From Nitrospirae bacterium JdFR-86 (GTDB lineage Bacteria; Nitrospirota; Thermodesulfovibrionia; Thermodesulfovibrionales; JdFR-86): a stretch of 64,000 nt of DNA. How positions within the stretch are numbered: position 1 is the stretch's first letter; each line of letters opens with the position of its first letter. Below are positions 31,166 to 62,785 of the stretch, in pieces. The position numbers and the translations under genes were made by a program. Below the pieces are notes generated by a model. It had not been told where the DNA came from and did no database searches. It saw nothing but the letters and a program-made list of their open reading frames with translations. The stretch lies in the NCBI GenBank assembly GCA_002011815.1, contig MTOV01000004.1:115514-179513 (forward strand), written 5' to 3'.

Positions 31166-31702
<537 letters not shown>

Positions 31703-45885: not shown

Positions 45886-45889
45886 TTTC

Positions 45890-46132: not shown

Positions 46133-46292
46133 TTTCCCCTCCTTATGTCATTTAAAACAATAAAATATCATTCTAAATATAAATATAACATCCAAAATGG
46201 TATCTGTCAAGTCATTTTTTCATCCAGAATGAAATTTTTTGATTTTCTTTGACAAAATGGGGCTTTTTGTATAAATTATTCTTGGGCTAACT

Positions 46293-46493
46293 ATGATTAA
46301 GTGTCATCTGTCGAAACTGATGGGCGAGAGGAAGTTGAAAATCGCCAATGTTGCACGGGACATCGGCGTCCACAGAAACACTATTGCCCTCTTGTACTAC
46401 GAAAAAGCCAAGAGAGTTGACTTAGATGTTCTGGATAAATTATGTAAGTATTTAAGTTGCGAAATTTCGGACTTATTAGAGTATAGAGATTAA
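46293..46493 (+). CDS. XRE/Cro-type helix-turn-helix regulator
   Basis: 66 aa, KLKIANVARDIGVHRNTIALLY HTH. Divergent from the OB/HD operon. Paralogue at 60313-60519. Confidence 0.85.
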   Translation: MIKCHLSKLMGERKLKIANVARDIGVHRNTIALLYYEKAKRVDLDVLDKLCKYLSCEISDLLEYRD

Positions 46494-46617
46494 ATTTTAT
46501 CTTAATACATTTTCTTTTTTTCTATAAGGGAAATTTTATTGTCCATCTTGTGGTATATGCATAAGTCTAAAGAACGATTGTCTAACAAGAGTTGCAAATT
46601 CACAAAAGAAAGTCCCA

Positions 46618-47352: not shown

Positions 47353-47366
47353 TAGGTGGTTTGATG
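47290..47366 (+). repeat. Junction repeat A (helicase-tail half only), left edge of the cassette array
   Basis: GCAAAGCGGGAGATTGTAGCGGCGAGGGTTTTTGAGGTACCGGCTGAGGCGATACAGCATGTGTAGGTGGTTTG aligns by eye with the tail halves of repeats D, B and C. Confidence 0.75.
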
Positions 47367-48226
47367 TGAATAATAAAAGCAAGAAAGCAGAAATTAAAAT
47401 TATTAGGGAATTTTTAAATTTTAGGGGCTGTAAGGTTCTACGGATAATCCCGAATGAAAGACCTGATGCTATAGTAGTTATTGAAGAAGCAGGAAAGCGG
47501 AAAAAAGTCGGGATAGAGCATACTGAGTACCATGTTGATGCTCCGCCAGGCAAGCCTTCGTCAGGCAGAAAAGTTCACAGTTTTTGGCATCATGTCCGAA
47601 GCAGTATTCGTAGACGTGTAAGTCACCGTCCAATTTTGAAGCATATAACTGGGCTGGTTTCTCTTAAGGAAGATAACCATCCAAGACAATCACGAGCAAG
47701 AGATCTGGCCGAAGAGTTGGTCAAATTAGCATTAGAGCATATTAATGCTATCCCAAATGGTGAGCACAGAATAAACAATTTTTCGAATAAAAAATATCCA
47801 CTTTTAAGTAGATATGTCAAAAAAGTTATTCTATATGGTACAGGTTCTGCTTGCAATGTGTCATGGGGATGTGTGAACGCAAATGTTTCAGCTATTGGTG
47901 TTTCTGCGAAAGAGATAACCTTAATCATTCAGAACAAGACCAAGGAATTTCCAAAATATTGCTGGGGAAACGTAAAGGAACGCTGGCTTCTTATAAGCGC
48001 ATCCGGAAAAACTGTTTTTAATTTAGCCACGTCTCATCCAGAAAGAGTTGAGTGGGAAGCGAATACACTCCAGTCCGCCTGCCTTAGTTCTAACGTTGAC
48101 CGTATCTTCTTTTGGGATAGGACATTCAATTGGTATAAGGAGGTCTGGCCCGGTGCGCCTATTGTCCAACGCGAGTGGAGGCCTGAAAAGATATACAAAC
48201 ACGAGACTAACTATGAAAGAGAATGA
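47348..48226 (+). CDS. Cassette 1: hypothetical ~292-aa protein (start uncertain)
   Basis: Long clean ORF. The first 9 codons of the track ORF lie in repeat A, so I prefer the ATG at 47348. A possible nuclease-like stretch (ERPDAIVVIEEAGKRKKVGIEHTEY) is not diagnostic. Confidence 0.55.
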   Translation: MCRWFDVNNKSKKAEIKIIREFLNFRGCKVLRIIPNERPDAIVVIEEAGKRKKVGIEHTEYHVDAPPGKPSSGRKVHSFWHHVRSSIRRRVSHRPILKHITGLVSLKEDNHPRQSRARDLAEELVKLALEHINAIPNGEHRINNFSNKKYPLLSRYVKKVILYGTGSACNVSWGCVNANVSAIGVSAKEITLIIQNKTKEFPKYCWGNVKERWLLISASGKTVFNLATSHPERVEWEANTLQSACLSSNVDRIFFWDRTFNWYKEVWPGAPIVQREWRPEKIYKHETNYERE

Positions 48227-48230
48227 TCCT

Positions 48231-48305
48231 CCAGCCAATGACATTAGTGCTGAAGTGTCGGATAAGATTATTGCAGTAAGATTTTTTGAAAACGATATAG
48301 CAAGG
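48231..48305 (+). repeat. Junction repeat D (short methylase-5' part + helicase-tail part)
   Basis: ..ATTAGTGCTGAAGTGTCGGATAAGATTATTGCAGTAAGATTTTTTGAAAACGATATAGCAAGG reads ISAEVSDKIIAVRFFEN. Confidence 0.7.
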
Positions 48306-48325
48306 AGAAATAGTTAATAGTTTCT

Positions 48326-50035
48326 ATGAAGTTCTCTAAACTAATAATAAAGAACTTCCGCTCCATAGGATCAGAAGGGTTGGAGATTAATTTTCCAAAA
48401 GATCGTAATCTCACTGCCATTGTCGGTGCTAATGCCTCAGGAAAAACAAATGTTCTCTCTGCACTTGGTATTGTATTAGGCATGTATCCTTTCAGCAGGT
48501 TTTCTCCAGAAGATACTGATTTTTTTAGCAAGAAATCTGAGACTGAGCTCCTAATAGAGCTTTATTTAGATCCCCCAATTGTTGATCATGATGTTTATCG
48601 TAAAGGATATACAATTGCAGGATTTCGCTATCGTGCAGCCCGATACAAAGTTGGAGAACGAAAGGGAACACTCCGTGATGAGCATTACTGTTTTGACGAA
48701 AATGGAAACACTATACTTAAACCACAAAGGATATTTCGAAGAAAAAGCCAGCCAGATGATGGTGTTGATAACACCCCTAAGCCTATTCTCGTCTCGGATC
48801 AAGCTTGGAAATTGGGAGACCTTTTTTATCTTGATCCCCCAACCCTCGAACGCTTTTTTGATAAAACTACAGGGTGGAGCCCACTTGGACGTTTATTTGA
48901 GATATATCGGGATGATTTTGAAGCAGACCATAACGTTTATTCTCATGATGGAAAAACAACAATGACATCTAAAGAGGCATTCGAGAAATTTTCTCGTAAT
49001 CTTGCTGGAATTCTTCGTACAACAAAGCTTTCATATATTGAAACTGGATTGTCTACTCGAATCAGAGAATATTTAGGCAATACTTCCGACCAACCATTAC
49101 GTGTAGAATTTTCTTTACCTTCTCATAAGGAACTGTTTGAACGCTGGGTTGCTCTACAAATTTCTGAGCATTCTGGACTTCCAGCACTTCCTATTGAACG
49201 TCTTGGTTCGGGTTACCGAGCTTTACTGCGCTTAGCCGTTCTTGAAACACTACTGGATATGAGAGAGGGTGAGCACACTTCCATTCTGCTGATAGAAGAG
49301 CCTGAAATGTATCTTCATGTGCACTTAAGAAGATATTTCTATCAAGTTCTGAGAAGATTAGCAGAAAGAGGTCATCAAATTATTTACACAACACATTCTC
49401 CCGAATTTATTGATCTTGCTGAGCCTCATGAAATCGTACGCCTGCATCGAAAGCCTGGTGATTCGACCATTTCAAAGCAAGTTGCAGTAAGCACAAAATT
49501 AGATTTCAGGCGAGTTAAACAAAAACTCAGAAGAATGGGAAATGAAGAAGTTGTCTTTGCTAATCATGCTATATTGACCGAAGGACAAGATGACAAAGGC
49601 ATTATTGAAGAATTGTTGGTGCGCAGAGGGGTTGACCCCGATGTCCACAGTATCTCGATTATAAATTGTGACGGGACAGGCCAGATAAAAGATTACATCC
49701 ATCTGTGTTCCGAATTAGGCGTGGATTTTTATGTTGTTCATGATAGAGACGATGACAGCAATAAAGACATTAAAAAGCGCAATGATCAGATTGCTGGGGC
49801 GGTATCAGAAGCTAATCAATCAAATCCATCCTTACATGTATATAACCCTACTCTGGAAGCTACAATGGGAACAGAGAAGAAAAAGGGAAATTTAGACCAT
49901 CTCCTTGAACTCCTCGGAGATAAAAGTTATGAAGACATCAGAACTACATTTCCAGACTTAATAAAACCGATAGAAGAGTTTGTTAAAAGTCGAGGATTGA
50001 AGATTGAAGCAAAGTTTGGGGAAAGAGATGATTGA
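48326..50035 (+). CDS. Cassette 2: OLD-family ATP-dependent nuclease (ABC-type ATPase + TOPRIM)
   Basis: KLIIKNFRSIG..AIVGANASGKTNVLSAL Walker A, ILLIEEPEMYLH Walker B, C-terminal TOPRIM ILTEGQDDKGIIEELL..VVHDRDDD. Confidence 0.8.
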   Translation: MKFSKLIIKNFRSIGSEGLEINFPKDRNLTAIVGANASGKTNVLSALGIVLGMYPFSRFSPEDTDFFSKKSETELLIELYLDPPIVDHDVYRKGYTIAGFRYRAARYKVGERKGTLRDEHYCFDENGNTILKPQRIFRRKSQPDDGVDNTPKPILVSDQAWKLGDLFYLDPPTLERFFDKTTGWSPLGRLFEIYRDDFEADHNVYSHDGKTTMTSKEAFEKFSRNLAGILRTTKLSYIETGLSTRIREYLGNTSDQPLRVEFSLPSHKELFERWVALQISEHSGLPALPIERLGSGYRALLRLAVLETLLDMREGEHTSILLIEEPEMYLHVHLRRYFYQVLRRLAERGHQIIYTTHSPEFIDLAEPHEIVRLHRKPGDSTISKQVAVSTKLDFRRVKQKLRRMGNEEVVFANHAILTEGQDDKGIIEELLVRRGVDPDVHSISIINCDGTGQIKDYIHLCSELGVDFYVVHDRDDDSNKDIKKRNDQIAGAVSEANQSNPSLHVYNPTLEATMGTEKKKGNLDHLLELLGDKSYEDIRTTFPDLIKPIEEFVKSRGLKIEAKFGERDD

Positions 50036-50042
50036 CAATAGG

Positions 50043-50155
50043 AAACTTATAGAGATTATCTTCCTAATTCAGAGCATTATTAGTGCTGAGGAGTCGAAGG
50101 AACTTGTTGCGGTAAGGTTTTTTGAGATACTGGCGGATGTGATACAGCAGTTTGG
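50043..50155 (+). repeat. Junction repeat B (methylase-5' part + helicase-tail part)
   Basis: Reads KLIEIIFLIQSIISAEESKE|LVAVRFFEILADVIQQ in one frame. The first half aligns with 54038-54091, the second with repeat A. Confidence 0.8.
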
Positions 50156-50175
50156 TATGAATACAGGAGTATAAA

Positions 50176-52323
50176 ATGAATAATATCAAAAAAGGATCTA
50201 AAACACACAACTTGCTTTATGATACTCCTCTTCAAGTGCCTGAGCAGGACCGACTTGGAGTGGCTAAATTTTCCAAAATTTTGGCTGATGCAATATTAAA
50301 AATGGACGCCGAGGAAGGATTTGTCTTTGCACTAAATGGTCCTTGGGGAAGTGGAAAAACGACCACAATCAATTTTGTTCTTCATTATCTGAAGCAGCAA
50401 ACTCATAATGAAATAGTTATAGTACGTTTTAATCCGTGGTGGTTTTCAGGGCGAGAGCAATTACTCCAGCACTTCTTTCGGCAGTTCCGGACAGTTTTAG
50501 AGAAAAATGTTACAAAAAACCTGATGAAGATAGGTAAGAAACTTGAACATCTAGCAAACATTCTTGATCCTGCTTTTCAAAAAATCGGTGTTTCGTCAAG
50601 AAGCATTGCAGCTACAATGAAAAAAGATATATTTGAAGTACGTAACTCAATAGATTCGATGCTTCAGAAACAAAGCGTCCGCATATTAGTAGTCATTGAC
50701 GATATAGACAGGCTGTCAACCCAAGAAATACGTCAGATATTCCAGCTTGTAAAAGCAGTTGCTGATTTTCCTAAAACAATATATTTCTTAGCTTTTGACC
50801 GTAATGTAGTCATCAATGCTCTTAAGGAAGTTCAAGGATTAGACGGAGAAGCTTATTTAGAGAAAATAGTTCAAGCTCAGTTTAATTTGCCCTATCCGGA
50901 TAGAACGAGCCTTCGGCGCCTTCTCTTTGAGCTTCTTGATGAGGTCATTTTAGATACTCCGGAAGACAGATGGGATAGTACTGAGTGGGGAAATCTGTAC
51001 TGGGACGGTATTGACCCGTTTATACAAACACCGCGTGATATCAAACGATTCATTAACGCCCTGAGGCCTACTTATCCAGTTGTGAAGGAAGAGGTTAATC
51101 CTGTAGATTTCATTGGCATTCAAGCCCTTCGGATATTTGTACCGGAAATATACGACTTTATAGCTACAAGTAAAGACTTACTCGCTGGTGAAAGTAATAG
51201 CCGTGACTTCTATGAGGCAAAAGATGCGTATAGAAATTTTTTTGAATCTGTCATTGAAAGACTTCCTGAAAAAAAGCGTGAGCCAGTAAAGGGCATGATG
51301 AAAAGACTGTTTCCCAAATGGTCAACCGTATTTGGTGGTGCTTCTTATGGCACAAATTGGTTAGAGAGTTGGAGGCGTGAACTACGTGTGTGCAGTCCAG
51401 ATATATTCGACCGATATTTTATGCTTACGGTTCCACCAGGAGAAATCTTTTCAGCAGAGATGCAAGCTATTCTTGAATTGGCAAGTGACCCTCAGGCTTT
51501 TTCTTCTGAGCTTGTTCGCCTCTCTAAAGAACATAGACCTGATGGTACTACCCGTCTTCGTGTATTCTTGGAACGAATGCTGGATTTTACTGAGAAGGAT
51601 ATACCGGAAGAGCATATAGAACCAATTTTGCGCGCAATTTATACAATTGGAGACCAGCTTTATATAGAAAGTGATAGGGTCAGTATGCTCGATGACGGAA
51701 ACGACATGCGGCTGCTCCGCATTACATATAGATTACTTAGAAGACTTCAAACACAAGAACAGCGGTTCGATATGCTCAGCAAGATGTATAAAGAGGGTAA
51801 GGCTCTATTTTTAATAGTGCGAGAAATGACCTTTCTGGGTATTGAACATGGAAAATATACCAACAAACAACCGGAAGAGCCTGAGGAGAAACGGACTGTA
51901 AGTGCCGAACATTTATCTCAATTGGAAACGCTTGTTTTACAGAAAATACGTGATGCTGCAAAAGAAAATACGCTCCAAAAAACTCCCGAACTTGGACGTG
52001 TGCTATACCGTTTTTCAGACCTGGGTACAGAAGAGGAAGTTAAAGAGTACGTGTCAGGTCTTATTAAGAATGATGAAGGACTGTGCGATTACCTTGCCGG
52101 ATTTCTTTGGAAAAGCCACTCTCATACATTGGGCGATCGAGTCGAACGACGTACATGGAGAATTAGTGTTGATTTTGTTCAAAAATTTATAGATGGAGAT
52201 GCGGCAAACCTATTGCCGCGTTGTCAAAAGCTTCTTAAGGATCAACCAAACTGGCTAAAGGATAGAAGAAAAATCGCTATTGAAACGTTTATACAAGAAA
52301 TCACTAATCCAGAAGTCAGATAA
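50176..52323 (+). CDS. Cassette 3, gene 1: KAP-family P-loop NTPase
   Basis: FVFALNGPWGSGKTTTINFV Walker A, ILVVIDDIDRL Walker B, and the size and layout typical of KAP NTPases. Confidence 0.75.
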   Translation: MNNIKKGSKTHNLLYDTPLQVPEQDRLGVAKFSKILADAILKMDAEEGFVFALNGPWGSGKTTTINFVLHYLKQQTHNEIVIVRFNPWWFSGREQLLQHFFRQFRTVLEKNVTKNLMKIGKKLEHLANILDPAFQKIGVSSRSIAATMKKDIFEVRNSIDSMLQKQSVRILVVIDDIDRLSTQEIRQIFQLVKAVADFPKTIYFLAFDRNVVINALKEVQGLDGEAYLEKIVQAQFNLPYPDRTSLRRLLFELLDEVILDTPEDRWDSTEWGNLYWDGIDPFIQTPRDIKRFINALRPTYPVVKEEVNPVDFIGIQALRIFVPEIYDFIATSKDLLAGESNSRDFYEAKDAYRNFFESVIERLPEKKREPVKGMMKRLFPKWSTVFGGASYGTNWLESWRRELRVCSPDIFDRYFMLTVPPGEIFSAEMQAILELASDPQAFSSELVRLSKEHRPDGTTRLRVFLERMLDFTEKDIPEEHIEPILRAIYTIGDQLYIESDRVSMLDDGNDMRLLRITYRLLRRLQTQEQRFDMLSKMYKEGKALFLIVREMTFLGIEHGKYTNKQPEEPEEKRTVSAEHLSQLETLVLQKIRDAAKENTLQKTPELGRVLYRFSDLGTEEEVKEYVSGLIKNDEGLCDYLAGFLWKSHSHTLGDRVERRTWRISVDFVQKFIDGDAANLLPRCQKLLKDQPNWLKDRRKIAIETFIQEITNPEVR

Positions 52324-52326
52324 GGA

Positions 52327-52746
52327 ATGAATATAGATGATTGCATAGATGCCGCGGAGAGAAACCTTTACGATGCTCGGAGATATCTTGAGAGCGGCGA
52401 AGCTGTCAATTGGGTGCCCGATAGTCTGTCCACCGCTCTGCTTCGGGCTATGGAGGCGTGGCTAATGGCGCATGGCCATAAATGGAATCGAGGTCAAGGA
52501 TGGGAAGGCTTACGTTCTGCTTTTATTGATGTAGCCCCGGAAAAGTTACGCTCTGAGGTTATGTACTGCTTAGGCAAGGCCACTTTTTTAGAATATGACC
52601 TTGAGGGAGGTTTTGAGCATAAAGAACCTATCCTACCGTTGAAGGAATGGAAGAAAGAAGCGTACGAATGTTTGGAAAAAATGGAGAAGGTTGTCAGGCA
52701 CCTACTTGCAGACACGAGATTGAACATATTATCTAAGGATAAGTGA
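52327..52746 (+). CDS. Cassette 3, gene 2: hypothetical 139-aa all-helical protein
   Basis: Starts 4 nt after the KAP stop. No diagnostic motif; any HEPN-like call would be a guess. Confidence 0.5.
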   Translation: MNIDDCIDAAERNLYDARRYLESGEAVNWVPDSLSTALLRAMEAWLMAHGHKWNRGQGWEGLRSAFIDVAPEKLRSEVMYCLGKATFLEYDLEGGFEHKEPILPLKEWKKEAYECLEKMEKVVRHLLADTRLNILSKDK

Positions 52747-52755
52747 TACCCGAAA

Positions 52756-52877
52756 ATGGTTGACGCAAACGCCTTATAGAAGGCTATCTTCCAATCAAGG
52801 TCATGAGTGTAGGGGCGTCGAGAGAGGTTGTCGTAGTAAGGTTTTTGAGATACCAGTGGAGGTGATACAGTGGTTTG
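52756..52877 (+). repeat. Junction repeat C (methylase start codon and 5' part + helicase-tail part)
   Basis: ATGGTTGACGCAAACGCCTTATAGAAGGCTATCTTCCAATCAAGG..GCGTCGAGAGAGGTTGTCGTAGTAAGGTTTTTGAGATACCAGTGGAGGTGATACAGTGGTTTG reads (frameshifted) M..RLIEGYLPIKVMSVGASRE|VVVVRF. Confidence 0.8.
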
Positions 52878-52881
52878 TGTA

Positions 52882-53970
52882 ATGAAGAATTCTCCAAGTG
52901 CGAATAAAGAAAGTAAAAAATACTCGCATCGGGTATTCATTTTAGGTGCGGGTTTTTCGCATCATCTGAGCTGCAAGGAGTTTCCCTTAGGCAATGAACT
53001 CTCTGAAATTATCCGCCGTTTAGAAATCCCTGAACTCGAACGCCATTATCAGGAGTGTAATCACGAACAGCCCCACCTGGAAGAAATTTTAACAAAGCTT
53101 GAGCTGGATCGTTACATTCATCAAAAGAGGAAAGATGAGATTAAAAAACTAATTTTTCTGAAGGTTCAGGAAAGGCTAACAGTAAAAAGCTTAGGTAAAA
53201 TAAATCTTGATTCTTCCAGAGAGCTTGTCAAAAATCTGTTTAGCGATAATGATGTTATCATCACGACCAACTATGATTTACTCCTCGACCATCTCTTGGA
53301 TGCCGCTGGCCTTTGGAGCCCGTTAGGCAATGGCTACGGCAATACCATAGAAGCAGATAATTTTAAAAGCGAAGAAATAAACCAAAAGCTAAAAAACATT
53401 CGACTTCTCAAAATTCATGGTTCTTTCAACTTTTTCTTAGAGCCTCTTGTATCTGGCGGCATGTCCAAATTGATTAGCGTCTTGGTCAATGGCCAGCATC
53501 CAGATTATCTGGATCGAGATGACCTATTCCAAAGCGCAAAAAATACCCACCTTAATGTCGACAAGAATGCTAAAAATCTCCGGGCGATAGTGTTGCCAAC
53601 ATATATTAAGCCTTTTGCTCAAAACCGCACAACCATGAAGATGTGGCACGAGGCAGGTGAAGCCATGGAAAACGCATCTGTTGTAAACATTATTGGTTAT
53701 AGCTTTCCCGAACCAGACCAAATGATGAGTTTTCTTATGAGTTGTCCCGATGCGAATGAATTTTTCAAGAAAGATAATCGAAAGCTGAAAATTAATATTT
53801 TGAATACCAAAAATGAGATCGATAGAATCAAAGATCATATTAAGCGGTGTCTTCGGGCCAATCCGCATGAACATATTGACTGGCGTGAGTTTGTATTGGA
53901 CAGTAATAATCCTAATCAAGCGTATGAGAATCTTGTTAAGTCTCTGAAAGGGCAATTTAATGATTCCTAA
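52882..53970 (+). CDS. Cassette 4: SIR2-like (SIR2_2 type) protein
   Basis: VFILGAGFS, VIITTNYDLLLDHLL and LKIHGSFNF, the three signature blocks of SIR2_2 proteins. ATG at 52882 preferred over GTG at 52870. Confidence 0.7.
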   Translation: MKNSPSANKESKKYSHRVFILGAGFSHHLSCKEFPLGNELSEIIRRLEIPELERHYQECNHEQPHLEEILTKLELDRYIHQKRKDEIKKLIFLKVQERLTVKSLGKINLDSSRELVKNLFSDNDVIITTNYDLLLDHLLDAAGLWSPLGNGYGNTIEADNFKSEEINQKLKNIRLLKIHGSFNFFLEPLVSGGMSKLISVLVNGQHPDYLDRDDLFQSAKNTHLNVDKNAKNLRAIVLPTYIKPFAQNRTTMKMWHEAGEAMENASVVNIIGYSFPEPDQMMSFLMSCPDANEFFKKDNRKLKINILNTKNEIDRIKDHIKRCLRANPHEHIDWREFVLDSNNPNQAYENLVKSLKGQFNDS

Positions 53971-54013
53971 TGAATGCAAACAATTGGCTAAGGTAGATTC
54001 CAAATAGTGAAGA

Positions 54014-54313
54014 ATGAAGATGAAAAATGATAAAAGACTCATAGAAGACTATCTTCCGATTAAGGCTATAAGTGCTGAAGCGTCGAGGGAGAAATCTGTA
54101 AAAAAGGGGCATATCTCTACACCTCATCTCTAGTGGGCAAGGCGGCCGCTTATGGCCTGCCGAGCTGCCGTCTATGGCGCGCTTGTGCCTGCTTCCAGAT
54201 TTGTTCCTGAGAACGGATCAGATAACAAAAAACAAAGCCTTGGAAGAGCCAATGCGGCTAAGTTCATGAGCGTCTTTGCAAATATCGCGGGACCCGTATT
54301 GCAATTTCCATAG
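54014..54313 (+). pseudogene. 5' remnant of a DUF1156-type DNA methyltransferase gene (junction half E), with in-frame TAG and truncation
   Basis: MKMKNDKRLIEDYLPIKAISAEASREKSVKKGHISTPHL*WARRPLMACRAAVYGAL. The conserved LWWARRP has TAG (54131-54133) in place of the first W. The ORF ends after 100 codons with no methylase catalytic region. Confidence 0.65.
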
Positions 54314-54409
54314 GCCCCATTCCTTTAGCTTGCCCTGTAGCTTGCTTAGGGTAGTTTATTGAGGCAACTCGTACGAGATATCTCCCGTCTGAATATGATA
54401 AAATGATCC

Positions 54410-55174
54410 ATGGCGGTTAAAAAAGAATTCAAAATTCGAAACATAAATATTACTGAAATTCATTACCATAGGAATCTACAAATAGCCAACATAGAAAAGC
54501 TTAAAACGTTATTTAATAATGTTGACCTCAACCTAGTCAAAACCTTTTATCCGCCTTTCGTTGTTGAAACACCTAAAGGTTTCTCGCTTTTGGGTAGGCA
54601 TTGGGTGCTTGCGTTAATCATCGCCAAAAATCCAAGGCTTTCCGGAAAAGCTTCCGAGGAAGCTTATAACATACCCGTAATAGTAGTAGATCCTGCTTCG
54701 GTAGAACAAATATTAGAACTTGATAGATTAGAGATAGAATTCTTCTTAAAGTTTAATACCCCAAATAAGGCTTCAAGGTCAACTCTTAATAGGTTAAAAA
54801 GTAGAAAAGCAGGACGTATATGTCCATTCTGCCACGGAGTTTTAAGACGTCCACGGGACAAGGCTGATAGGACGAAAGAAGTTGGCTATATCATTCATTG
54901 CGAAAACAATACAAAGACCAGCACGGGTAGAAAATGTGATTTCGAACTAATCCTAACAGATATTGAGTATAACTTATTCATAAACTATAAACTTCCGATA
55001 TCTAAGATATTAGTCCCCATAAGCAAAAATTGTCCTAAATGTGGAAATAGACTCTATAAAAGAATTGTCCACAAATCCGATGAGATAAGGATATATGAAC
55101 GATGCAGGAATAAGATTTCTTCAAATGGAGGATGTGACTATAATACCTTTATAAAAAATATTATAGAGAAGTGA
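54410..55174 (+). CDS. ParB-like N-terminal domain protein with two topoisomerase-type zinc ribbons
   Basis: The ParB/Srx-like stretch PPFVVETPKGFSLLGRHWVLALIIA, then CPFCHG..HCEN..CDF and CPKCGNRLYKR..RCRNK..GCDY. Confidence 0.55.
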   Translation: MAVKKEFKIRNINITEIHYHRNLQIANIEKLKTLFNNVDLNLVKTFYPPFVVETPKGFSLLGRHWVLALIIAKNPRLSGKASEEAYNIPVIVVDPASVEQILELDRLEIEFFLKFNTPNKASRSTLNRLKSRKAGRICPFCHGVLRRPRDKADRTKEVGYIIHCENNTKTSTGRKCDFELILTDIEYNLFINYKLPISKILVPISKNCPKCGNRLYKRIVHKSDEIRIYERCRNKISSNGGCDYNTFIKNIIEK

Positions 55175-57798
55175 AATCCTTTTCCATAACTAACATTATT
55201 GGAAAACTCTATAGTGTTACCCTGACGCCACAAGGTAAAGAAATATCTCTATATGAGTCTAACATAGACGAGCTTGTTAAATATATTCAAAATTTATTTT
55301 CACCCGAAAGAAACGGTCCAACAATATCAGAGAATGATATAAAAACTTGTATCTTTTTCTTCCTGCGACTGGTAAATACCCCTACTAGTCTTAGAGGGGC
55401 TCTTCTTATAAAACCGTGCTTAATATACCTGACAAAATCTGCTTGCGAAGAAGCTCGAGTATCCCAAAATGCTTCTGATGAAATTATGTCCTTTCTAATT
55501 ATGTGGTTCAAGGCATTGGAAAACTCTCCTGATGCAGCAAGTATTTATCTCAAAAAACCCGATATAAAAGAATCTCCTCTTTTTAGATTTCACATAGATG
55601 CTTACACTTATTCAAAAACTGACGACGCTACCCTACCCTCTTTTTACAGAGCTTATGCTTATATTCTTCACAAAAAGATAAGACTAAACGAAAGGCAAAA
55701 CATTGATTATGACACTCATCTTTCATACATCAGAGCTGCTCGATACTTTTTCAAGTATATGCCAGATGATATAAAGTCTTTAACGAACCACCCTCAAGTA
55801 ATACCAGAAAACTACATTGATCTATTTGCGCGGCGATTAGATATCAATGAAAAAAAGAACTACGATGGTCCTCTGTCTAGCCTCGCAATAACTTATAAGA
55901 AAAAACTAAAAGCGTTAATCATCGGCAAGACAATTAAACCACATCCACATGAAGGAGCAAGATTTACACGAAAAATCAAAGAAGGTTTTCCTCAAAATGT
56001 ACCAGCAGACGGGACTCTTACCATATTGACCCCCAAAATACACACGCCAGATATTGCTCAACGTATTTATCGCCTTGAAGCAGAAAAAGCACTGGAATAT
56101 GAAACGGATGAAGAAGTAATCAACTGTGAAAAGTTCGAAGCAGATTATGAACTGCAAATGTATGAACTACCTGAGAAAGATTTAATTACCCCCCAAAAAC
56201 CTTCTTTGAAAAAAGGATGGGAAGATTTAATAAATCTGAGAAGTTTTAACTTCTATTGGGACTCAAATTACCTAAATCTCTTTCACTATGCAGTTATGTA
56301 CCAAACAATGATTAAACTCTGGAACACATCCTCATTTGATAATGCTAACCTGACTTTCATTGAGATCCTTATCCATACTGGTATACACCCCAAAAAGTTG
56401 ATTGACTTAACAACTACCATTGAAAATACAGATAAAGAATTCATTCAACTTCAGAAAGTTGAAGAAAGGTATCATATATTAATCGAATCTATAGTCAAAT
56501 ACAGAAGGACGATTGACCATCCAGCTTGTTTTAAAACCTCCTCCACAGTTTGGGTTCCACTACCTGATAGGCTAAGCAAATTACTCTCCCACCTTCCAAT
56601 ACATCAAAGCCCATTCGTGTTTAGTTATGTTACTTCCAGAAATAGAATAAAACGGCTCTCATTACTGGATGTCGAGAATTATATAGAAAAAAATATCAAC
56701 AATGCATATCCTGAATATGAGCTAAAAATCACATTAGCAAAAATTTACAGGTCATTTTTGCCGCTTTATCATCACCGTTTTGGATTAGACCCTCTTGTTT
56801 GTACACTTATAAGCGGGGAAGATCACCATAGACTTTACAGATCACAACTGCATTATGTCTATATTGAACATAAACGACTAGCTAAAGAGTATTTGGAAAC
56901 TCATAACAAGGTAACTTCTGCTATTAAAGAAAACCTTTACAACAGCATACAATTTTCTTTTCTTGATAAAAATAGATTCTCTCAAGAGGAAATAAATAAA
57001 TTTATTACACACAATCGCGCAATAGAAAGCCTTGACAAGATTTCAGTCCCACAGAAGCACGATTTTGGTTATGGTTCACCTCTTATATGCAAAAAAGAAT
57101 ATATAATTAATCTTGTTTCGTCTTTAAGGCATGCGATAATAAATGAGACTAACCCTTTAAAAAGGCATAATTTCTATTCTATATATGTCTATTTATGCCT
57201 TCAATTTTCTACATGCTTAAGGCCTAGGAATAACCCAGACATCCTATGGGCGGATTATAATGAACACTCAAATGTGATAGCAATATGCGATAAACAAAGC
57301 GTTAAATATAATGAAGAGAGATTTCTTCCTATCACAACGACATTAAAGACGCTTCTCACACACTTACATAAAGGTTTTAGACCGCTACGATTACATCTTG
57401 CAGAATATTATTACCCACCTTTAATAAAATTTGAAACGGACAAAATCTTCTTTTTCATAGAGGAGAAAACCGGAAAGATTATTGATTTTACTCTTAAAAA
57501 ACTGAAAGAGCACCTCAAAAATATTGGTATTGACTATTCATTGCCATTGAACATGCCTCGGCATTTTTTGAGAAATTATTTATATCACTTAAACCTTTCA
57601 AATGACCTAATAGATTATTGGATGGGCCACCAACATATAAGTAAAGAATTGTTAAACAGTTCTTCCTCTGTACTTGCAGAAAATGCAATTGACACTGCTT
57701 TAACGGAAATTGACTCCTTACTCAATGAACTTGGCTTTACAGTTTTAGACTATCTTCCGAGAAATATTAAATGGAATGCGTCAAAGATAACAGATTAA
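55171..57798 (+). CDS. Large (875 aa) tyrosine-recombinase-like protein lacking an obvious nucleophilic Tyr at the canonical position
   Basis: The C-terminal ~230 aa carry CLRPRN (Arg I), KQSVKYNEERFLPI (Lys), PRHFLRNY (HxxR) and WMGHQH, but the following ISKELLNSSSSV has no Tyr. GTG start overlaps the upstream stop (GTGA). Confidence 0.6.
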   Translation: MKSFSITNIIGKLYSVTLTPQGKEISLYESNIDELVKYIQNLFSPERNGPTISENDIKTCIFFFLRLVNTPTSLRGALLIKPCLIYLTKSACEEARVSQNASDEIMSFLIMWFKALENSPDAASIYLKKPDIKESPLFRFHIDAYTYSKTDDATLPSFYRAYAYILHKKIRLNERQNIDYDTHLSYIRAARYFFKYMPDDIKSLTNHPQVIPENYIDLFARRLDINEKKNYDGPLSSLAITYKKKLKALIIGKTIKPHPHEGARFTRKIKEGFPQNVPADGTLTILTPKIHTPDIAQRIYRLEAEKALEYETDEEVINCEKFEADYELQMYELPEKDLITPQKPSLKKGWEDLINLRSFNFYWDSNYLNLFHYAVMYQTMIKLWNTSSFDNANLTFIEILIHTGIHPKKLIDLTTTIENTDKEFIQLQKVEERYHILIESIVKYRRTIDHPACFKTSSTVWVPLPDRLSKLLSHLPIHQSPFVFSYVTSRNRIKRLSLLDVENYIEKNINNAYPEYELKITLAKIYRSFLPLYHHRFGLDPLVCTLISGEDHHRLYRSQLHYVYIEHKRLAKEYLETHNKVTSAIKENLYNSIQFSFLDKNRFSQEEINKFITHNRAIESLDKISVPQKHDFGYGSPLICKKEYIINLVSSLRHAIINETNPLKRHNFYSIYVYLCLQFSTCLRPRNNPDILWADYNEHSNVIAICDKQSVKYNEERFLPITTTLKTLLTHLHKGFRPLRLHLAEYYYPPLIKFETDKIFFFIEEKTGKIIDFTLKKLKEHLKNIGIDYSLPLNMPRHFLRNYLYHLNLSNDLIDYWMGHQHISKELLNSSSSVLAENAIDTALTEIDSLLNELGFTVLDYLPRNIKWNASKITD

Positions 57799-60308
57799 GA
57801 ACTATATCAGATATAGAATCCTATATAAGAACAGTGGCATCTAAAATCGCCGCTAAAAAGGGAATCTCGGAAAAAGTACTTGAACGAGTTGCTGATACAT
57901 TAATACAAAGGATACGAAAAAAGTACTCTGATAAACACATAAATGTAAATAAAACGCCTCTGCTAAAACTAAGCCGCGATGATATAAATGTCATAGGAGA
58001 TGCACTGGTCATAGGCGACATTTATTCTTATCAGACTTGGCTACATCGTGATAACTTCAATAGCTTGATCTTTAAGCTCAACATTGAACAGGTCATCCAA
58101 GGGCCCTTTTTAAGAATTCCACAACAAATAAGGCGCATGCTGATATTACAGATAGATCGTAGGATGTGGAAGCCACTTAAATATATTTATGCCCTTTCTG
58201 CTGATCTTTCAGCTCTAAAAATAAATAATTTCAAAAATCTAACTGAACTGGGGAGAAAAAAGAAGGAAGAAGAGGAAGATTACCTTTGCTCTTTTATCGC
58301 ATCGGCCGCACTTTTTGGAAAAATACTTTTCCCTGGATTTGAAAATGCCATACTACGATCTACATGGAAAAATATTTCATTATCTCCAGTTTATATTGAA
58401 ATACCCTTAGATAAAAACTACAAACAAGGCAGCAATCCTCCTTTTTACAGATATTTTCTACCTGCACCAGCCTCAAATTACCTTCTGAGATATCTGCTCT
58501 TTATAGAAAAACATTATCCTAGCAGGAATAAGAAAAAAGACTTAAATGCTCCTGTCTTTGAACACATACAAAAAAATCTCAATAAGTTTCCATATATCTT
58601 TGAAAAATGGACCATAAAAAGACTTAATGAACTAGGATTTTATGATATTAAAGGACTTTCGATAAGAACTTTCCGTAAAGCAGCATTGCTGGCATCTGCT
58701 ATGTCTATAATCAGACCTACTAAGACAAGTTCTTATCCTCCTTTTATACTCTCAATTCAAACACAGAAGATAATCAGTGATTCTGTCCCTTGGAAATTTT
58801 TTATGGACTGCCCTGAATTTGATACTAAATCCGGGGTGTTTCTATATAAAGACACTGACTATGGATTACCAGAAAGAGAAAAGCCTGTAATTAACAATCG
58901 AGAGTTATCCAAAGCGTTGAAGACAATACAAACCTTCTTTCGAGATCCTCTTAAAACCGAAAAAAATACGGGCACAAAATCGTCACTGGGCGACAGAAAA
59001 TCTATCATGAAGAAAATAAACTCACTTATCTCTTCTTTTGAAAACTTACTTCCATATGCTGATTATGAAAACCTTAAACTATATTCAGAGTGGATTGCAG
59101 ACATGCTTGTTTTAAAAAGAACAGCAATAAAAACTATCAGTAACTATGTCTCAAATGCAAAAGACCTACTCCTTGCTCTTCCTGGAAACAAACCGGTTTA
59201 TAAATTCTCGCAAGAAGAGCTTACCCAAATCATAAAACAGATCTTAAATCGTCATCTTTCTCCTAATATTATAAAGGGGTTAAAATCATTCTTGTATTTT
59301 GTTGAAGCTCGTTTTAAGGGCACCTTTGAATCTCCCAAATGGAAAAATAAAGAATTACGTAAGAAATCTTCTCTCACAGTGAAACCTTTAATCCACTTTG
59401 AACATGTCTCAGCCGCACTTGATAAACGTCACAACCTCACACACACTTATTTAAACAAGTATAAAGGTGAAAATCAGTATGAGAAACTGCTTCGAAGTAT
59501 AACGCATAAATCAGAAGCCCTTCACCATATGGTTCATCTGGGCTTTTATACAGGACTGAGAGCGGGAGAATTTGCACATCTACGCATCCAAAATGTTGTC
59601 TATGATACTGGATATGTTCTGTGTATAAGAACAACCAAAACTGAAAACGGACTGAGAAACATTCCTCTTAGCTTACTTTTACCGACTAATTATATGGAAG
59701 AGTTTATTTCATATTATGAGCAGCGAAAACGCAACGCTTCAACCTCAAAAGACTTATTATTTCCAGGACATGATGGTAAACCGTGGGATACAAGTTATAT
59801 GGCATCCGAAGTAAGACGCCTTTTTGAGTATATAGGCATAAGAAAAGTGAGATTTCATTATTTGAGACATGCCTTTGCAAACTGGTTTTTATTACGATGG
59901 TTTGTAGCGTTTTATCCTCAATATATAACAGAAGATATCCCATTTTTAAAGAATGAGCTGTTCCAAGAACCTCATATCACAAATTTTAAAAAGTTATTTA
60001 TAGGAATGAACAATAAAAAATGCCAAGAATCTTTCACGTATGCTCTTGCAGTCCTCGCCCGACTCATCGGTCACGGAGGACCTTTAGTTACCCTACAGAA
60101 ATATATACATATCGGGGACTGGCTATTTTTCTTACTTTCAAGACATCACAACAATACGATGGTGGATATTACATCGAAACAGGCCCAAGATTTTTTACAG
60201 GTAAGCTACCCTACTCTTCCTGAGGAACTAAAGGGAAGAAGCAAAAAAACATTATCCTACGAAGAACTTTTGTATTACCAAAGATTAAAATACTTGAAAA
60301 ATAGGTAA
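57771..60308 (+). CDS. Large (845 aa) tyrosine recombinase with complete catalytic signature and ~440-aa unknown N-terminal region
   Basis: YTGLRAGEF (Arg I), TKTENGLRNIPL (Lys), FHYLRHAF (HxxR), LIGHGGPLVTLQKYIH (His..Tyr). A SAM-like core-binding segment lies upstream. Confidence 0.75.
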   Translation: MECVKDNRLRTISDIESYIRTVASKIAAKKGISEKVLERVADTLIQRIRKKYSDKHINVNKTPLLKLSRDDINVIGDALVIGDIYSYQTWLHRDNFNSLIFKLNIEQVIQGPFLRIPQQIRRMLILQIDRRMWKPLKYIYALSADLSALKINNFKNLTELGRKKKEEEEDYLCSFIASAALFGKILFPGFENAILRSTWKNISLSPVYIEIPLDKNYKQGSNPPFYRYFLPAPASNYLLRYLLFIEKHYPSRNKKKDLNAPVFEHIQKNLNKFPYIFEKWTIKRLNELGFYDIKGLSIRTFRKAALLASAMSIIRPTKTSSYPPFILSIQTQKIISDSVPWKFFMDCPEFDTKSGVFLYKDTDYGLPEREKPVINNRELSKALKTIQTFFRDPLKTEKNTGTKSSLGDRKSIMKKINSLISSFENLLPYADYENLKLYSEWIADMLVLKRTAIKTISNYVSNAKDLLLALPGNKPVYKFSQEELTQIIKQILNRHLSPNIIKGLKSFLYFVEARFKGTFESPKWKNKELRKKSSLTVKPLIHFEHVSAALDKRHNLTHTYLNKYKGENQYEKLLRSITHKSEALHHMVHLGFYTGLRAGEFAHLRIQNVVYDTGYVLCIRTTKTENGLRNIPLSLLLPTNYMEEFISYYEQRKRNASTSKDLLFPGHDGKPWDTSYMASEVRRLFEYIGIRKVRFHYLRHAFANWFLLRWFVAFYPQYITEDIPFLKNELFQEPHITNFKKLFIGMNNKKCQESFTYALAVLARLIGHGGPLVTLQKYIHIGDWLFFLLSRHHNNTMVDITSKQAQDFLQVSYPTLPEELKGRSKKTLSYEELLYYQRLKYLKNR

Positions 60309-60312
60309 AGAA

Positions 60313-60519
60313 TTATTCTTTGAATTCAAGAAGATCACTGACTGAACAATTGAAGTATCGACAAAGTTTATCAAGAACTTCAAAATCTATCCGTTTTGCC
60401 TTTTCGTGGTATAGCAAGGCTATAGTATTTCTATGAACGCCGATATCCCGTGCGACATCAGCGATCTTTAGCTTCCTCTCCCCCATTAACCTTGATAAAT
60501 GGCACTTAATCATCTTCAA
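60313..60519 (-). CDS. XRE/Cro-type HTH regulator, paralogue of 46293-46493
   Basis: MKMIKCHLSRLMGERKLKIADVARDIGVHRNTIALLYHEKAKR.., about 51 of 65 aligned residues identical to the first copy (hand count). Confidence 0.85.
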   Translation of the reverse strand: MKMIKCHLSRLMGERKLKIADVARDIGVHRNTIALLYHEKAKRIDFEVLDKLCRYFNCSVSDLLEFKE

Positions 60520-60675
60520 AACCCTTAATAATTTACACTAAAAATGCCTTCAAATCAAATAACTTCACAAAATGTCATTCTGAATAACAAAATCGCTTGA
60601 CAAATGTCTTTTTTAAGGTTATAATATCATTGAAAGTGACATTTAGGCATTTTTAATAGCAAAAAGAAGTTTAAC

Positions 60676-61320
60676 ATGAAATTAATGACTACAAACATGA
60701 AACCAAATGAAATTGTGACGACATTCTTCGTTCTACATGCTCTGGAGCGCAGAGAAAGCAAAACCGGTCAACGTTGTTTTCTCTCGCTAAAACTTTCTGA
60801 CAGAAGTGGGTCAATCACAGGCTATGTCTGGAACGAAATTGAACAGGTATTTCCGGCAATAAAGAGAAAACCCTTTGTCAAAGTAAGAGGAATCACGAGA
60901 GTCTCGAATGATATGCTGGTCATTCATATCGAAAAAATCAGGGGGGCAATGCTATATGGCATAGGAAAAACTAAAGAAATCCAATGGGAAACCATAAAAA
61001 GACTTTCAACAGAAGGGATTCTGCTAGGACACATTAATATCAGGCTCATAATGCTCGCAAACAAAATTTCTATCATTAAGGGTTTTCCTAAGGAATATAC
61101 CCTGCGGTTAAAGCATATGCTTCTTTCCTATCACGGTACGCTCGAATACGGTAACCCTATTATACCAGCGGCTCCAGAAGCAATAGTCCTTCACCTGATA
61201 GAAAATCCGGATGCAAAAATAATCATCTCTATTGTCATTTTGGAAATTCCGATCCTGAAGCCGTATGGGGCCATTTCGACAAGTTTCTTAAGACCAGAAT
61301 TTATCAAGGAGGTGATCTAA
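60676..61320 (+). pseudogene. Decayed paralogue of the OB/HD gene (internal deletion removing the HD core, plus C-terminal frameshift)
   Basis: Aligns with 44660-45646 at both ends, but ~115 residues (..HHNYIGGLLEH..AFLHD) are missing. After LIENPDAK the homologous sequence NNHLYCHFGNSDPEAVW continues in another frame. Confidence 0.7.
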
Positions 61321-61392: not shown

Positions 61393-61638
61393 ATGAATAT
61401 TTATCTTACAACTGAAGAATTAAGTTTAAAAATAAAATACAATCCACGATATATCAGGGAACATCTTAAGGATAAAGTCTTTAAAAAGGACATTCATTAC
61501 ATAAAACCTTTTGGAGGAAAGAAAATCCTCTACATATGGAATGAAATCGAAAAACTTATCCTTTCACCTGCCAAAGAAGAAAACCCTATGGATAAAATTA
61601 TTTTAAGGAGGAAGAGAGCATACAATGGGCAAAATTAG
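61393..61638 (+). CDS. Small excisionase/AlpA-like DNA-binding protein (candidate Xis)
   Basis: 81 aa, LTTEELSLKIKYNPRYIREHL HTH-like segment, overlapping the integrase start by 14 nt. Confidence 0.5.
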   Translation: MNIYLTTEELSLKIKYNPRYIREHLKDKVFKKDIHYIKPFGGKKILYIWNEIEKLILSPAKEENPMDKIILRRKRAYNGQN

Positions 61639-62785
61639 AGTCACTAAAGCGGGTTACCTTTATTTTGATTTTTTCTATCAAGGAATTAGGTGCAGGGAAT
61701 ATACTAAATTAAAAAATACGCCAGAAAACTTTAAGATAATGAAAGCTGCCTTAGAAAAAATAGAAAGTGAAATTCTTCTGGGTACATTTGACTATCCTAA
61801 ATATTTCCCCGGGAGCAGAATTGCCACACAATTTTCACAAGATACCAAAAAATCTGATGGTATTCCTTTCGAAGAATTCGCTCAACAATGGTATAAAAAT
61901 AACATGATCTCGTGGAAGCCGTCTGTCAGAAAAGATTTTAAATCCATTCTAAACTACCATCTAATTCCGCATTTTAAAGACATACCAGTCATACATATAA
62001 CCAAAGCGATGATAAAAAATTTCAGAACATCACTTGCTCAACTGGAAGGAAGAAAAGGCCCATTAAGCAATAAACGCATTAACAATATACTTTCTGTATT
62101 AAGACTGATACTCAATGAAGCAGCTGAGGAATACGAAATTTCAAACCCTTTTGTCAAAATTAAACCTCTTCCTGTCAGAAAGTCTCACATTATGCCATTC
62201 TCATTAAAAGAAGTATTTACTTTCCTTGATATGGTTCCAAGAGATTTTTACAATTACTATGTCGTAAGATTCTTCACAGGAATGAGAACAGCCGAGATAG
62301 ATGGGCTTAAATGGGTATATGTAGATTTCAATAATAAGAAGATTCATATCAGAGAAACATGGCAAAATAACCAATGGGTTCCACCTAAAACTGAGAGCTC
62401 TGTGAGAGAGATAGATATGTCTGAAATAGTCGAAAAAGCACTGTTATGCCAGAAAGAAAAAACAGGTCATCTTGAGTTAGTCTTCTGCACAAAAACAGGA
62501 AAGCCTTTGGATTACAACAATGTTTCTAAGCGAATCTGGTATCCAACGCTTAAAAAAGCAGGACTTACACCCAGAACTCCATATCAAACACGACATACAG
62601 CTGCGACTCTTTGGCTTGCTTCAGGCGAAAACCCAGAATGGATAGCAAAACAACTGGGGCATTCTGACACGCAGATGCTTTTCAAGATATACTCAAAATT
62701 CATACCAAACTTGACAAGAAAGGATGGTTCAGCATTTGAACGTATTCTCAACGAATACATAACCAATAGGGAGAGGGATGAGTAA
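61625..62785 (+). CDS. int: Phage-type tyrosine integrase with N-terminal arm-binding domain
   Basis: FFTGMRTAEIDGL (Arg I), PKTESSVREIDM (Lys), YQTRHTAATLW (HxxR), LGHSDTQMLFKIYSKF (His..Tyr). Confidence 0.9.
   Translation: MGKIRVTKAGYLYFDFFYQGIRCREYTKLKNTPENFKIMKAALEKIESEILLGTFDYPKYFPGSRIATQFSQDTKKSDGIPFEEFAQQWYKNNMISWKPSVRKDFKSILNYHLIPHFKDIPVIHITKAMIKNFRTSLAQLEGRKGPLSNKRINNILSVLRLILNEAAEEYEISNPFVKIKPLPVRKSHIMPFSLKEVFTFLDMVPRDFYNYYVVRFFTGMRTAEIDGLKWVYVDFNNKKIHIRETWQNNQWVPPKTESSVREIDMSEIVEKALLCQKEKTGHLELVFCTKTGKPLDYNNVSKRIWYPTLKKAGLTPRTPYQTRHTAATLWLASGENPEWIAKQLGHSDTQMLFKIYSKFIPNLTRKDGSAFERILNEYITNRERDE

Follow-up and report, generated by a model that had tools for sequence, protein, structure and literature searches.

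A candidate heteromeric recombination module that combines an intact tyrosine recombinase with a partner lacking the catalytic tyrosine, near tRNA-fragment junctions

We analyzed a stretch of 64,000 nucleotides (nt) from Nitrospirae bacterium JdFR-86 (assembly GCA_002011815.1, contig MTOV01000004.1, positions 115,514 to 179,513 of the forward strand; hereafter "the window"), which carries three adjacent genes, A, B and C, at 54410-60308. We propose that A-B-C is a heteromeric recombination module of tRNA-integrating islands, elements that would insert in the anticodon-loop region of tRNA genes; we put the probability of this reading at roughly 50%. It is the reading that best accounts for four properties taken together: C is an intact tyrosine recombinase by its residues, B lacks the nucleophile, the genes are coupled, and in four lineages the module is the set of genes nearest to the junction. 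A stronger and more tentative proposition, which we consider possible rather than probable, is that A-B-C represents a new class of heteromeric recombinases, in which C, an obligatory tyrosine-less B that supplies half of an active site in trans, and A as a zinc-ribbon specificity factor would drive, in place of the neighboring integrase, the insertion of a widespread family of islands in the anticodon loops of different tRNA genes of both Nitrospirota and Proteobacteria. Because a conventional integrase adjoins the module in more than half of the loci, and because plasmids carry the module as well, a role in maintenance or DNA processing, or in defense, retains some probability, and these alternatives are weighed below.

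The three genes and their products

A preliminary description of this DNA, made from the letters alone, had placed three open reading frames (ORFs) of the same strand at 54410-60308, and they lie exactly there. According to the list of ORFs, gene A (54410-55174, forward strand) encodes 254 amino acids (aa), gene B (55171-57798, forward strand, GTG start) encodes 875 aa, and gene C (57771-60308, forward strand) encodes 845 aa. The stop codon of A and the start codon of B overlap in the tetranucleotide GTGA, and the overlap of B with C is 28 nt long; this arrangement suggests coupled translation. The three genes form a real, conserved unit, whose A-B-C order recurs across loci (see below).

[quoted passage not shown] It matches the Pfam family Phage_integrase (PF00589) with 57.9 bits, the match covering only profile positions 5-140 of 172; NCBIfam yielded weak Xer-type matches and PHROGs generic integrase matches only. 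When nine homologues are aligned, the residues R597, K623, H696, R699, H768 and Y778 prove invariant, and the full R-K-HxxR-H-Y signature assigned to this protein in the preliminary description is thus borne out. The spacing between R699 and H768 is 69 residues, compared to approximately 23 residues between the corresponding Arg and His/Trp in XerD and Cre; therefore, C contains an insertion of ~46 aa before the His/Tyr segment. An insertion between HxxR and GH had already been described and is indeed present, but its size, given as ~65 aa, was the raw spacing. The domains of C are an N-terminal region (1-375), a core-binding domain (~375-535) and the catalytic domain. Its AlphaFold model has a mean pLDDT of 67, with low confidence at 720-784, the segment that holds H768 and Y778. 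With this model, Foldseek retrieved matches to XerA (E-value 5e-7), IntI, lambda Int, the Tn1549 Int and Cre, and the alignments span 365-390 columns, i.e., the core-binding and catalytic domains. Residues 1-375 match no family, and neither does the C-terminal tail, which is conserved (TSxQAQxFLQVSYPSLP); a helix-turn-helix reading of this tail was rejected, given no Pfam match in six homologues. By its conserved residues, C is the only subunit of A-B-C able to cleave and rejoin DNA, via Y778.

Protein B scores 24.3 bits against Phage_integrase, below the gathering cut-off of 27.1, and searches of NCBIfam, PHROGs and PADLOC with this protein gave no match. Among 12 homologues of B, invariant residues are R684-P-R686-N, D707-K708, N794, P796-R797-H798 and G819-H820-Q821, as well as S832 and S833. 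Nine residues past H820, at the site of the tyrosine in XerD and Cre, there is a near-invariant asparagine (N829), and no tyrosine is conserved after residue 805 in these homologues. The 875-aa protein had been suspected to lack the catalytic tyrosine and to be a non-catalytic partner, and the alignment supports both suggestions. Since every B homologue examined lacks this tyrosine, its loss is a trait of the family and not a misplaced residue or a sign of a pseudogene; and since the nucleophile position is asparagine across the family, B is best understood as a non-cleaving partner. One detail has to be revised: the arginine of the HxxR motif formerly assigned to B (R801) is not conserved, being replaced by Thr or Ser in three members. 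Invariance is found instead at R797, which lies 23 residues before H820 and is for this reason taken as the second catalytic arginine of B, and the "His II" position is the invariant Asn794. As far as can be judged from these conserved positions, B keeps the phosphate-binding Arg/Lys/Arg/His pocket without the nucleophile.

In the AlphaFold model of B (mean pLDDT 66), residues 1-255 form a helical N-terminal domain and 257-366 a linker modeled with low confidence; these are followed by a middle alpha/beta domain and, at ~640-860, by a C-terminal domain that probably has the tyrosine-recombinase fold. Only this last domain finds matches by Foldseek, namely XerD, XerA and an S. aureus integrase, with E-values from 2e-3 to 2e-2. 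The long N-terminal regions of both large proteins, in which no motif had been recognized earlier, match no model of Pfam, NCBIfam, PHROGs or PADLOC (B 1-660, C 1-560). Two further ideas on their origin were rejected. B and C as full-length paralogues are represented by a weak match in the catalytic domain only, and an internal duplication of the recombinase fold (B 362-535, C 150-315), which secondary structure suggested, reached a probability of at most 3.5% when sub-alignments were compared with hhalign.

Nine homologues of protein A, found at the same position in their loci, have an N-terminal motif YPPxF...LVARHWVYA followed by two C4 clusters. The cysteines of the first ribbon (C138, C141, C164 and C176) are invariant, and the second ribbon (~208-242) is present in most members, in line with the two ribbons that the preliminary description had seen in A. 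The family Zn_ribbon_recom matches five of the nine members (best E-value 2.4e-4) and Zn_ribbon_Top1 four of the nine, all below the cut-offs. The accompanying label of a ParB/Srx-like protein fared less well: no ParB match at E<=1 was obtained with the nine homologues, and none was found by Pfam, NCBIfam, PDB sequences or a scan of the isolated N-terminal 127 aa; searches of PDB sequences with A returned nothing useful in general. The small protein of a diverged module from Mariprofundus ferrooxydans (L017, see below) scores 15.4 bits (E-value 0.02) against ParB_N (PF02195), for which the cut-off is 26.3. The "ParB-like" label is therefore not supported and is kept as no more than a lead.

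Distribution of the module

Word-indexed searches of 5.8 billion clusters returned eight relatives of B, seven of C and none of A. When the B profile was searched exhaustively with HMMER, the number of cluster representatives was 80 below an E-value of 1e-30, 586 below 1e-10 and 1,532 below 1e-3; approximately 60 clusters contain full-length relatives (800-900 aa), and there are several hundred partial ones. A scan of metagenomes added only four loci. The A-B-C order is present in about 12 independent loci, mostly of Nitrospirota (L001, L002/L012, L005-L008, L028, L009-L011, L013, L014, L027, L029/L030 and L031). It is kept in every locus retrieved, with genes that overlap or closely abut, at only 27-47% protein identity; the sizes range from 243 to 290 aa for A, from 837 to 885 aa for B and from 811 to 856 aa for C. 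For example, Nitrospirae bacterium GWF2_44_13 (L013) has 28% identity, and a metagenome-assembled genome (MAG) of Thermodesulfovibrionales (L014) has 27%. In a Nitrospiraceae MAG (L002/L012), an IS21 element (IstA/IstB; L002 4747-7318) sits between A and B and splits the operon.

Several details of individual loci may be recorded here. In a second assembly of the L002 locus (L003), B is called as two pieces. In L002 (2906-3883) and L005 (2071-3005), A is preceded by two additional ORFs of 154-171 aa and 83 aa, which are conserved and without family matches, and homology between L002 and L005 stops ~70 bp past the stop codon of C. Directly 3' of C in L014 (12070-12531) is a 153-aa ORF that resembles the His/Tyr segment of a C-like recombinase (hhalign 29%) and may be the remnant of a second module in tandem.

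A diverged version of the module consists of a small protein of ~150-210 aa, a B-like protein of ~790-820 aa and an integrase of ~1,066-1,120 aa. Its carriers are Mariprofundus ferrooxydans PV-1 (L017), Aeromonas caviae KAM479 (L023; at ~278.5-284.7 kb of NZ_AP026896.1) and the Acinetobacter plasmid pBspH2 (L021), where the RefSeq names of the trio are hypothetical, hypothetical and site-specific integrase. The middle protein of L017 aligns with B over the C-terminal half of the latter (hhalign 98%) and has MGHWERGQEPWAKFSS at the expected site of the tyrosine, and the L021 integrase has the insertion-bearing catalytic domain of C (97.6%). An Oceanospirillaceae MAG (L016) encodes an 820-aa relative of C; this locus is cut at the contig start, which falls within the first ORF, and the gene order was checked for the last two genes.

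With tblastn searches of plasmids, B found no relative, and C found catalytic-domain matches only, which led to the diverged modules and to an operon resembling those of GInt islands. No relative of B was found among IMG/VR viral contigs with the patterns used; as C matches only generic integrase PHROGs, a phage origin was rejected. E. coli genomes contain no DNA-level relative of the Aeromonas c gene. It should be noted that seven much larger proteins of 1,736-1,840 aa (P0117, P0119, P0122, P0142, P0150, P0162 and P0165) have only the B-type tyrosine-less recombinase-fold domain in common with the module, a pattern that suggests fusion or some other elaboration of the system.

tRNA-fragment junctions

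In four lineages (L001, L029/L030, L017 and L023), A starts 180-240 bp from a 3' fragment of a tRNA gene on the reverse strand, and the tRNA homology of these fragments ends at the anticodon loop; such a truncated 3' half is what an element that integrates in a tRNA gene leaves at its junction. The distance is ~190-240 bp in the diverged modules of L017 and L023. The fragment of L001, L029 and L030 is the 3' half of tRNA-Met(CAT) and lies to the left of A (the L001 sequence begins inside it); that of L023 derives from tRNA-Asp(GTC), and that of L017 from tRNA-Arg(CCG), as read by eye. As ARAGORN calls a tRNA at none of these sites, they are fragments and not tRNA genes. A terminator hairpin is found on the outer side of the fragment in L029, L030 and L023. 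The comparison of L029 to L030 shows 99.6% identity from the fragment inward over 5.5 kb, and different outer flanks (~68 nt are available for L030). In Aeromonas caviae KAM479 (L023), an intact tRNA-Asp gene lies 46 kb from the fragment, which repeats 55 nt of its 3' end exactly and in direct orientation. Downstream of C, the available sequence of L001 (10 kb) and of L030 (3.8 kb) contains no other recombinase.

The window itself contains a 46-nt segment (39200-39245, reverse strand) that corresponds to the 3' part of tRNA-Met(CAT), from the anticodon stem to the CCA end, and is not called as a tRNA by ARAGORN. The exact 17-mer GACCTTCGGGTTATGAG occurs once in the window, at 39224-39240, compared to 0.09 matches expected by chance; the same 17-mer of the tRNA-Met fragment is also found in L011, 4 kb from A. 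The arms beside the fragment in the window, L001, L011 and L029 have the motif CCATxTxAAACC and inverted repeats of the form GTTTC...GAAAC in common. From these sequence features, 39200-39245 is probably the left attachment (att) junction of the island that holds the module. Given this fragment, the island would start at ~39245 and end past 64000, for a length of >25 kb. The G+C content of the island drops from 40 kb on, and along the window it falls from ~0.40-0.45 to ~0.34 from roughly 55 kb to the end. A recombinase operon at the terminus of the element, the arrangement used to delimit GInt islands and SE elements, is seen in L001, L029/L030, L017 and L023; in the window and in L011, A lies 15 kb and 4 kb, respectively, from the fragment.

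Comparison with known systems

An operon composed of an active tyrosine recombinase, an incomplete protein of the recombinase fold and a small protein, next to variable cargo, is reminiscent of GInt islands, in which ginABCD encode active recombinases, GinC with an incomplete catalytic set and the small GinD, and delimit one end of the island (PMC5385486). The differences are substantial: GInt operons have four genes, with two active recombinases of ~400-600 aa and the small protein encoded last, whereas the module has one active recombinase of ~850 aa, a tyrosine-less partner of ~850 aa that keeps both arginines, and the zinc-ribbon protein encoded first. Moreover, the reported targets of GInt islands are protein-coding genes, whereas the junctions of the module are tRNA fragments.

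The SE elements (strand-biased circularizing integrative elements) carry intA-tfp-intB-srap, where IntA is an arm-type integrase of 467 aa, Tfp has the tyrosine-recombinase fold but lacks the catalytic residues, IntB is a large recombinase of 731 aa and Srap is a small auxiliary protein, and they have been found only in Gammaproteobacteria (PMC10214605, PMC9345347, PMC5991714). The window holds the same four kinds of proteins (an integrase, B, C and A) within 8.4 kb. However, the order is A-B-C followed by the integrase, the latter is transcribed as a unit of its own and is missing in several loci, and the RHRY set is entirely absent from Tfp, but in B only the tyrosine (and His II) is gone. 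By these published descriptions, the module differs from SE elements in its build.

Tn554 is likewise a site-specific element that requires two proteins of the recombinase family, one of them large (TnpB has ~630 aa), along with a small protein. Both of its recombinases, TnpA and TnpB, have the RHRY set, and the small protein is TnpC (PMC10214605); in A-B-C this set is complete in C alone. Sizes and gene order differ as well, as do the hosts, which for Tn554 are Staphylococcus and Enterococcus; again, the distinction is drawn from the description. RIT elements encode three recombinases of 315-410 aa, all with the catalytic tyrosine, and have terminal inverted repeats (PMC10214605), whereas the module has two ~850-aa proteins of the recombinase fold, one without the tyrosine, and no terminal inverted repeats were found. 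The statement of the preliminary description that the genes fit neither Tn554 nor RIT elements holds for gene number, size and order.

Features shared with classical tRNA islands of the Int/Xis type are the truncated 3' half of a tRNA gene at the junction, an anticodon-loop crossover, recombinase genes beside the att site and variable cargo that includes defense genes. The distinction is that the genes nearest to the junction are A-B-C and not a single integrase of ~400 aa, and that they lie at the end with the displaced fragment. Taken together, GInt, SE and Tn554 serve as the functional precedent for the proposed role, and the resemblance to them appears to be one of module build and not of detectable ancestry, with profile comparisons made for a GInt-like operon only.

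Genomic neighborhood and alternative roles

Downstream of C, 5 nt from its stop codon and convergent with it, is a gene for an HTH_26 (Cro/CI-type) regulator (60313-60519, reverse strand; Pfam 81.9 bits). Next comes a YhaM-like gene with OB and HD domains (60676-61320, forward strand), which encodes 214 aa compared to ~326 aa in its relatives; with a C-terminal part that seems to lie out of frame, this gene is probably a decayed copy. An 81-aa ORF (61393-61638, forward strand) without a Pfam match, which is Xis-like by position only, overlaps the start of the gene for a 386-aa tyrosine integrase with an N-terminal Arm-DNA-bind_2 domain identified by Pfam (61625-62785, forward strand). The integrase stop codon is overlapped in turn by the gene for a 629-aa DEAD_2/Helicase_C_2 (XPD/DinG-like) helicase, which runs from 62778 past the window end at 64000 (forward strand; JGI gene call on the parent contig). 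Beyond the helicase gene, the parent contig (L018 11154-15596) contains IS3 remnants and a Cas6 gene and then ends.

To describe how far these neighbors recur, the proteins encoded within 8 kb of the module were clustered for 15 loci. A tyrosine integrase is encoded downstream of C in 8 of the 15 loci, including L016, L017 and L023; a YhaM-like OB+HD protein is present in five (the window and, at full length, L009, L014, L017 and L023), the HTH_26 regulator in four, the Xis-like small ORF in four and the DEAD_2 helicase in three. The HTH_26 gene directly follows C in L011 and lies within the integrase block in L009, L013 and L016. Homologues of the 81-aa ORF adjoin the integrase in L009, L013 and L017, and the helicase has homologues in L009 and L013. 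When the window, L013 and L009 are compared, the integrase block shows 65-75% DNA identity (65-69% for the integrase gene of the window against those of L013 and L009), compared to 28-39% protein identity for A-B-C. A side observation concerns the YhaM-like proteins: those of L017 and L014 have borderline matches to TraI_2 (PF07514; E-values 5.8e-5 and 1.6e-3, respectively), which we take to be a family related to MOBH-type relaxases, and they might be DNA-processing enzymes and not RNases.

Several results weigh against a recombination module that integrates into tRNA genes. A conventional integrase near the module in 8 of 15 loci could alone explain the tRNA insertion, with A-B-C having another job. 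The module is also carried by plasmids, where integration is unneeded, and the occurrences in Acinetobacter pBspH2 (L021) and Sphingobium (L020) have no integrase nearby. For the island of the window, a second att copy was not found before the parent contig ends ~3.2 kb past the window, and no excision product, circular form or empty site was seen. A search for terminal inverted or direct repeats around 53900-60720 gave chance-level matches only, so that the repeats which the preliminary description had proposed to look for around 54314-60309 do not flank the module. No tRNA fragment was found in L005, L010, L013, L014 and L031, although the Rfam scan for partial tRNAs in L031, L010 and L014 is uninformative, as it missed the known fragments of L029, L030, L017 and L023. 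The 46-kb Aeromonas interval is unproven as a single island because its G+C content is 0.52, compared to 0.53 for the host, and because it contains copies of insertion sequences (IS). Finally, hhalign comparisons of B, C and A to hp620, int574 and hp155 of a P. aeruginosa plasmid operon (L024), which is classed as GInt-type by gene organization only, gave probabilities of 0.1%, 2.7% and 0.2%, respectively.

Some of these results would be expected if A-B-C were a maintenance or DNA-processing module, active in resolution of multimers or cointegrates, in a partition-like process or in relaxase-like nicking, with the Int/Xis pair performing the integration. The plasmid modules without a nearby integrase fit this alternative, as does the adjoining block of a complete integrase, the Xis-like ORF, HTH_26, YhaM-like (HD) and helicase genes, which is far better conserved than A-B-C. 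MpsA, a mobilization protein, resembles tyrosine recombinases. Nicking of a single strand is conceivable for a set that has just one catalytic tyrosine, and the L017 small protein has its weak ParB_N match. A potential point of comparison is the pair of SGI1 mobilization proteins MpsA and MpsB (PMC9299015). However, the ParB match stays below threshold, sites of the oriT, res or par type were not identified, and C has the full core-binding and catalytic architecture of true recombinases. The loci L001 and L030, with the module at an att-type junction and no other recombinase in the available sequence, also count against this explanation, which we consider unlikely.

The ~15 kb between the tRNA-Met fragment and the module are occupied by genes of other kinds, those at 43043-53970 being a run of defense type. 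These encode a ParA-like ATPase (41779-42816), an Mrr_cat nuclease (43043-43714), the N-terminal piece of a fragmentary SNF2 helicase gene (46618-47265), an OLD/Gabija-like ATPase-nuclease (48326-50035, forward strand; PADLOC match to Old/GajA), a PifA/KAP NTPase (50176-52323, forward strand; PADLOC match to PifA) with a 139-aa ORF as partner, and a SIR2-like protein (52870-53970, forward strand; PADLOC match to SIR2). Between the SIR2-like gene and A lies an N-terminal fragment of a DUF1156 (methylase-like) gene (54018-54310, forward strand), which has an in-frame stop where the HLWWARRP motif is expected and is cut off ~100 bp upstream of A. The leader or promoter region of A (54311-54409, forward strand) directly follows this fragment, and the truncation of DUF1156 may mark a left junction of inserted DNA there. 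Between 54.2 kb and the region past the helicase gene, the search for att-like repeats found chance-level matches only.

In this setting, A-B-C could be regarded as cargo that defends against phages or plasmids, with the recombinase trapping or cutting invading DNA and with A and B as sensors. The module of the window follows the OLD, PifA/KAP and SIR2-like genes and the DUF1156 fragment on the same strand, other loci are surrounded by toxin-antitoxin pairs, Fic, RHS and AAA_14/DUF4143 genes and IS elements, and A-B-C diverges fast compared to the neighboring integrase block. Such co-location is weak evidence because defense genes are common in any island. Furthermore, PADLOC-DB 2.0 contains no match for A, B or C at E<=0.1, we know of no defense system built on a tyrosine recombinase, and the recurrent spacing of ~200 bp to a tRNA-fragment junction in four lineages is unexpected for cargo. 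We consider a role in defense quite improbable, somewhat more so than a role in maintenance. As to the AAA_14/DUF4143 ATPase genes, they recur around the module in L010, L011 and L013, with four copies in L013, and look like independently inserted selfish or defense genes.

A second, inverted HTH_26/YhaM-like set is located at 44660-46493, with the HTH_26 gene at 46293-46493 (forward strand), two 80-aa ORFs and a full-length YhaM-like OB+HD gene at 44660-45646 (reverse strand). This set and the one at 60361-60644 share 71% identity over 284 nt, and the two sets, 14 kb apart, bracket the defense genes and A-B-C. At this level of identity, the inverted copies are too diverged to serve as a pair of recombination targets. 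The bracketing arrangement, along with CI-like repressor genes (one encoding a Peptidase_S24 domain) that are divergent upstream of A in L009, L011 and L014, could indicate that B, and possibly the whole set, is a DNA-binding regulator, C being kept perhaps for an unrelated inversion or phase-variation switch. The lack of the nucleophile in B is compatible with such a role, and the Foldseek matches of C include YopR of SPbeta (PDB 8bj6), presumably a DNA-binding repressor with the recombinase fold. However, a pure repressor would have no need for the invariant Arg/Lys/Arg/His pocket of B, and C keeps every catalytic residue; besides, YopR is a single small protein and not part of a three-gene operon. 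This is the least likely of the alternatives, and we give it very little credence.

Two RNA genes were noted in the housekeeping part of the window: a 6S RNA gene (16347-16533, forward strand, 77.6 bits) and a tRNA-Ser(CGA) gene (31608-31697, forward strand), the ORF adjoining the latter encoding a multihaem cytochrome and not an integrase.

Proposed mechanism and implications

If A-B-C is a heteromeric recombination module, its mode of action can be outlined as follows. The three proteins would be co-translated and assembled as one complex on the attachment site of the element, where B would fill the non-cleaving positions of the synapse and recognize the site through its large N-terminal domain. 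Flp builds its active site from two protomers, one providing the pocket and the other the tyrosine. By analogy, the pocket of B, which has no tyrosine of its own, may receive the tyrosine of C in trans, and the location of this tyrosine in C on a segment after a long insertion would be in keeping with such an exchange. Protein A would be a small architectural or directionality factor, in the role of TnpC, GinD or Srap. The arm-type integrase that many elements encode downstream, together with the Xis-like ORF, may work jointly with A-B-C, in the manner of IntA in SE elements. In the window, the ~15 kb of genes between the module and the tRNA-Met end (ParA-like, Mrr-type, the second HTH/YhaM-like set, OLD, PifA and SIR2) would have accreted.

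Obligatory multi-protein recombinase sets such as those of Tn554, SE elements and GInt islands are, to our knowledge, poorly understood, and we know of none in which the role of the catalytically dead subunit has been established. The A-B-C module offers a cleaner case, with one active subunit and a partner that lost the nucleophile only and kept the phosphate pocket, and it comes with defined tRNA junctions and with culturable carriers, namely Aeromonas caviae, Mariprofundus ferrooxydans and an Acinetobacter plasmid. Even if the module does not drive integration, it is a conserved, moderately widespread family that has gone without annotation. If it does, A-B-C would be a fourth, phylogenetically broad lineage of such machines, it would explain the mobility of defense-gene islands in Nitrospirota, and it could yield programmable, tRNA-specific large recombinases.

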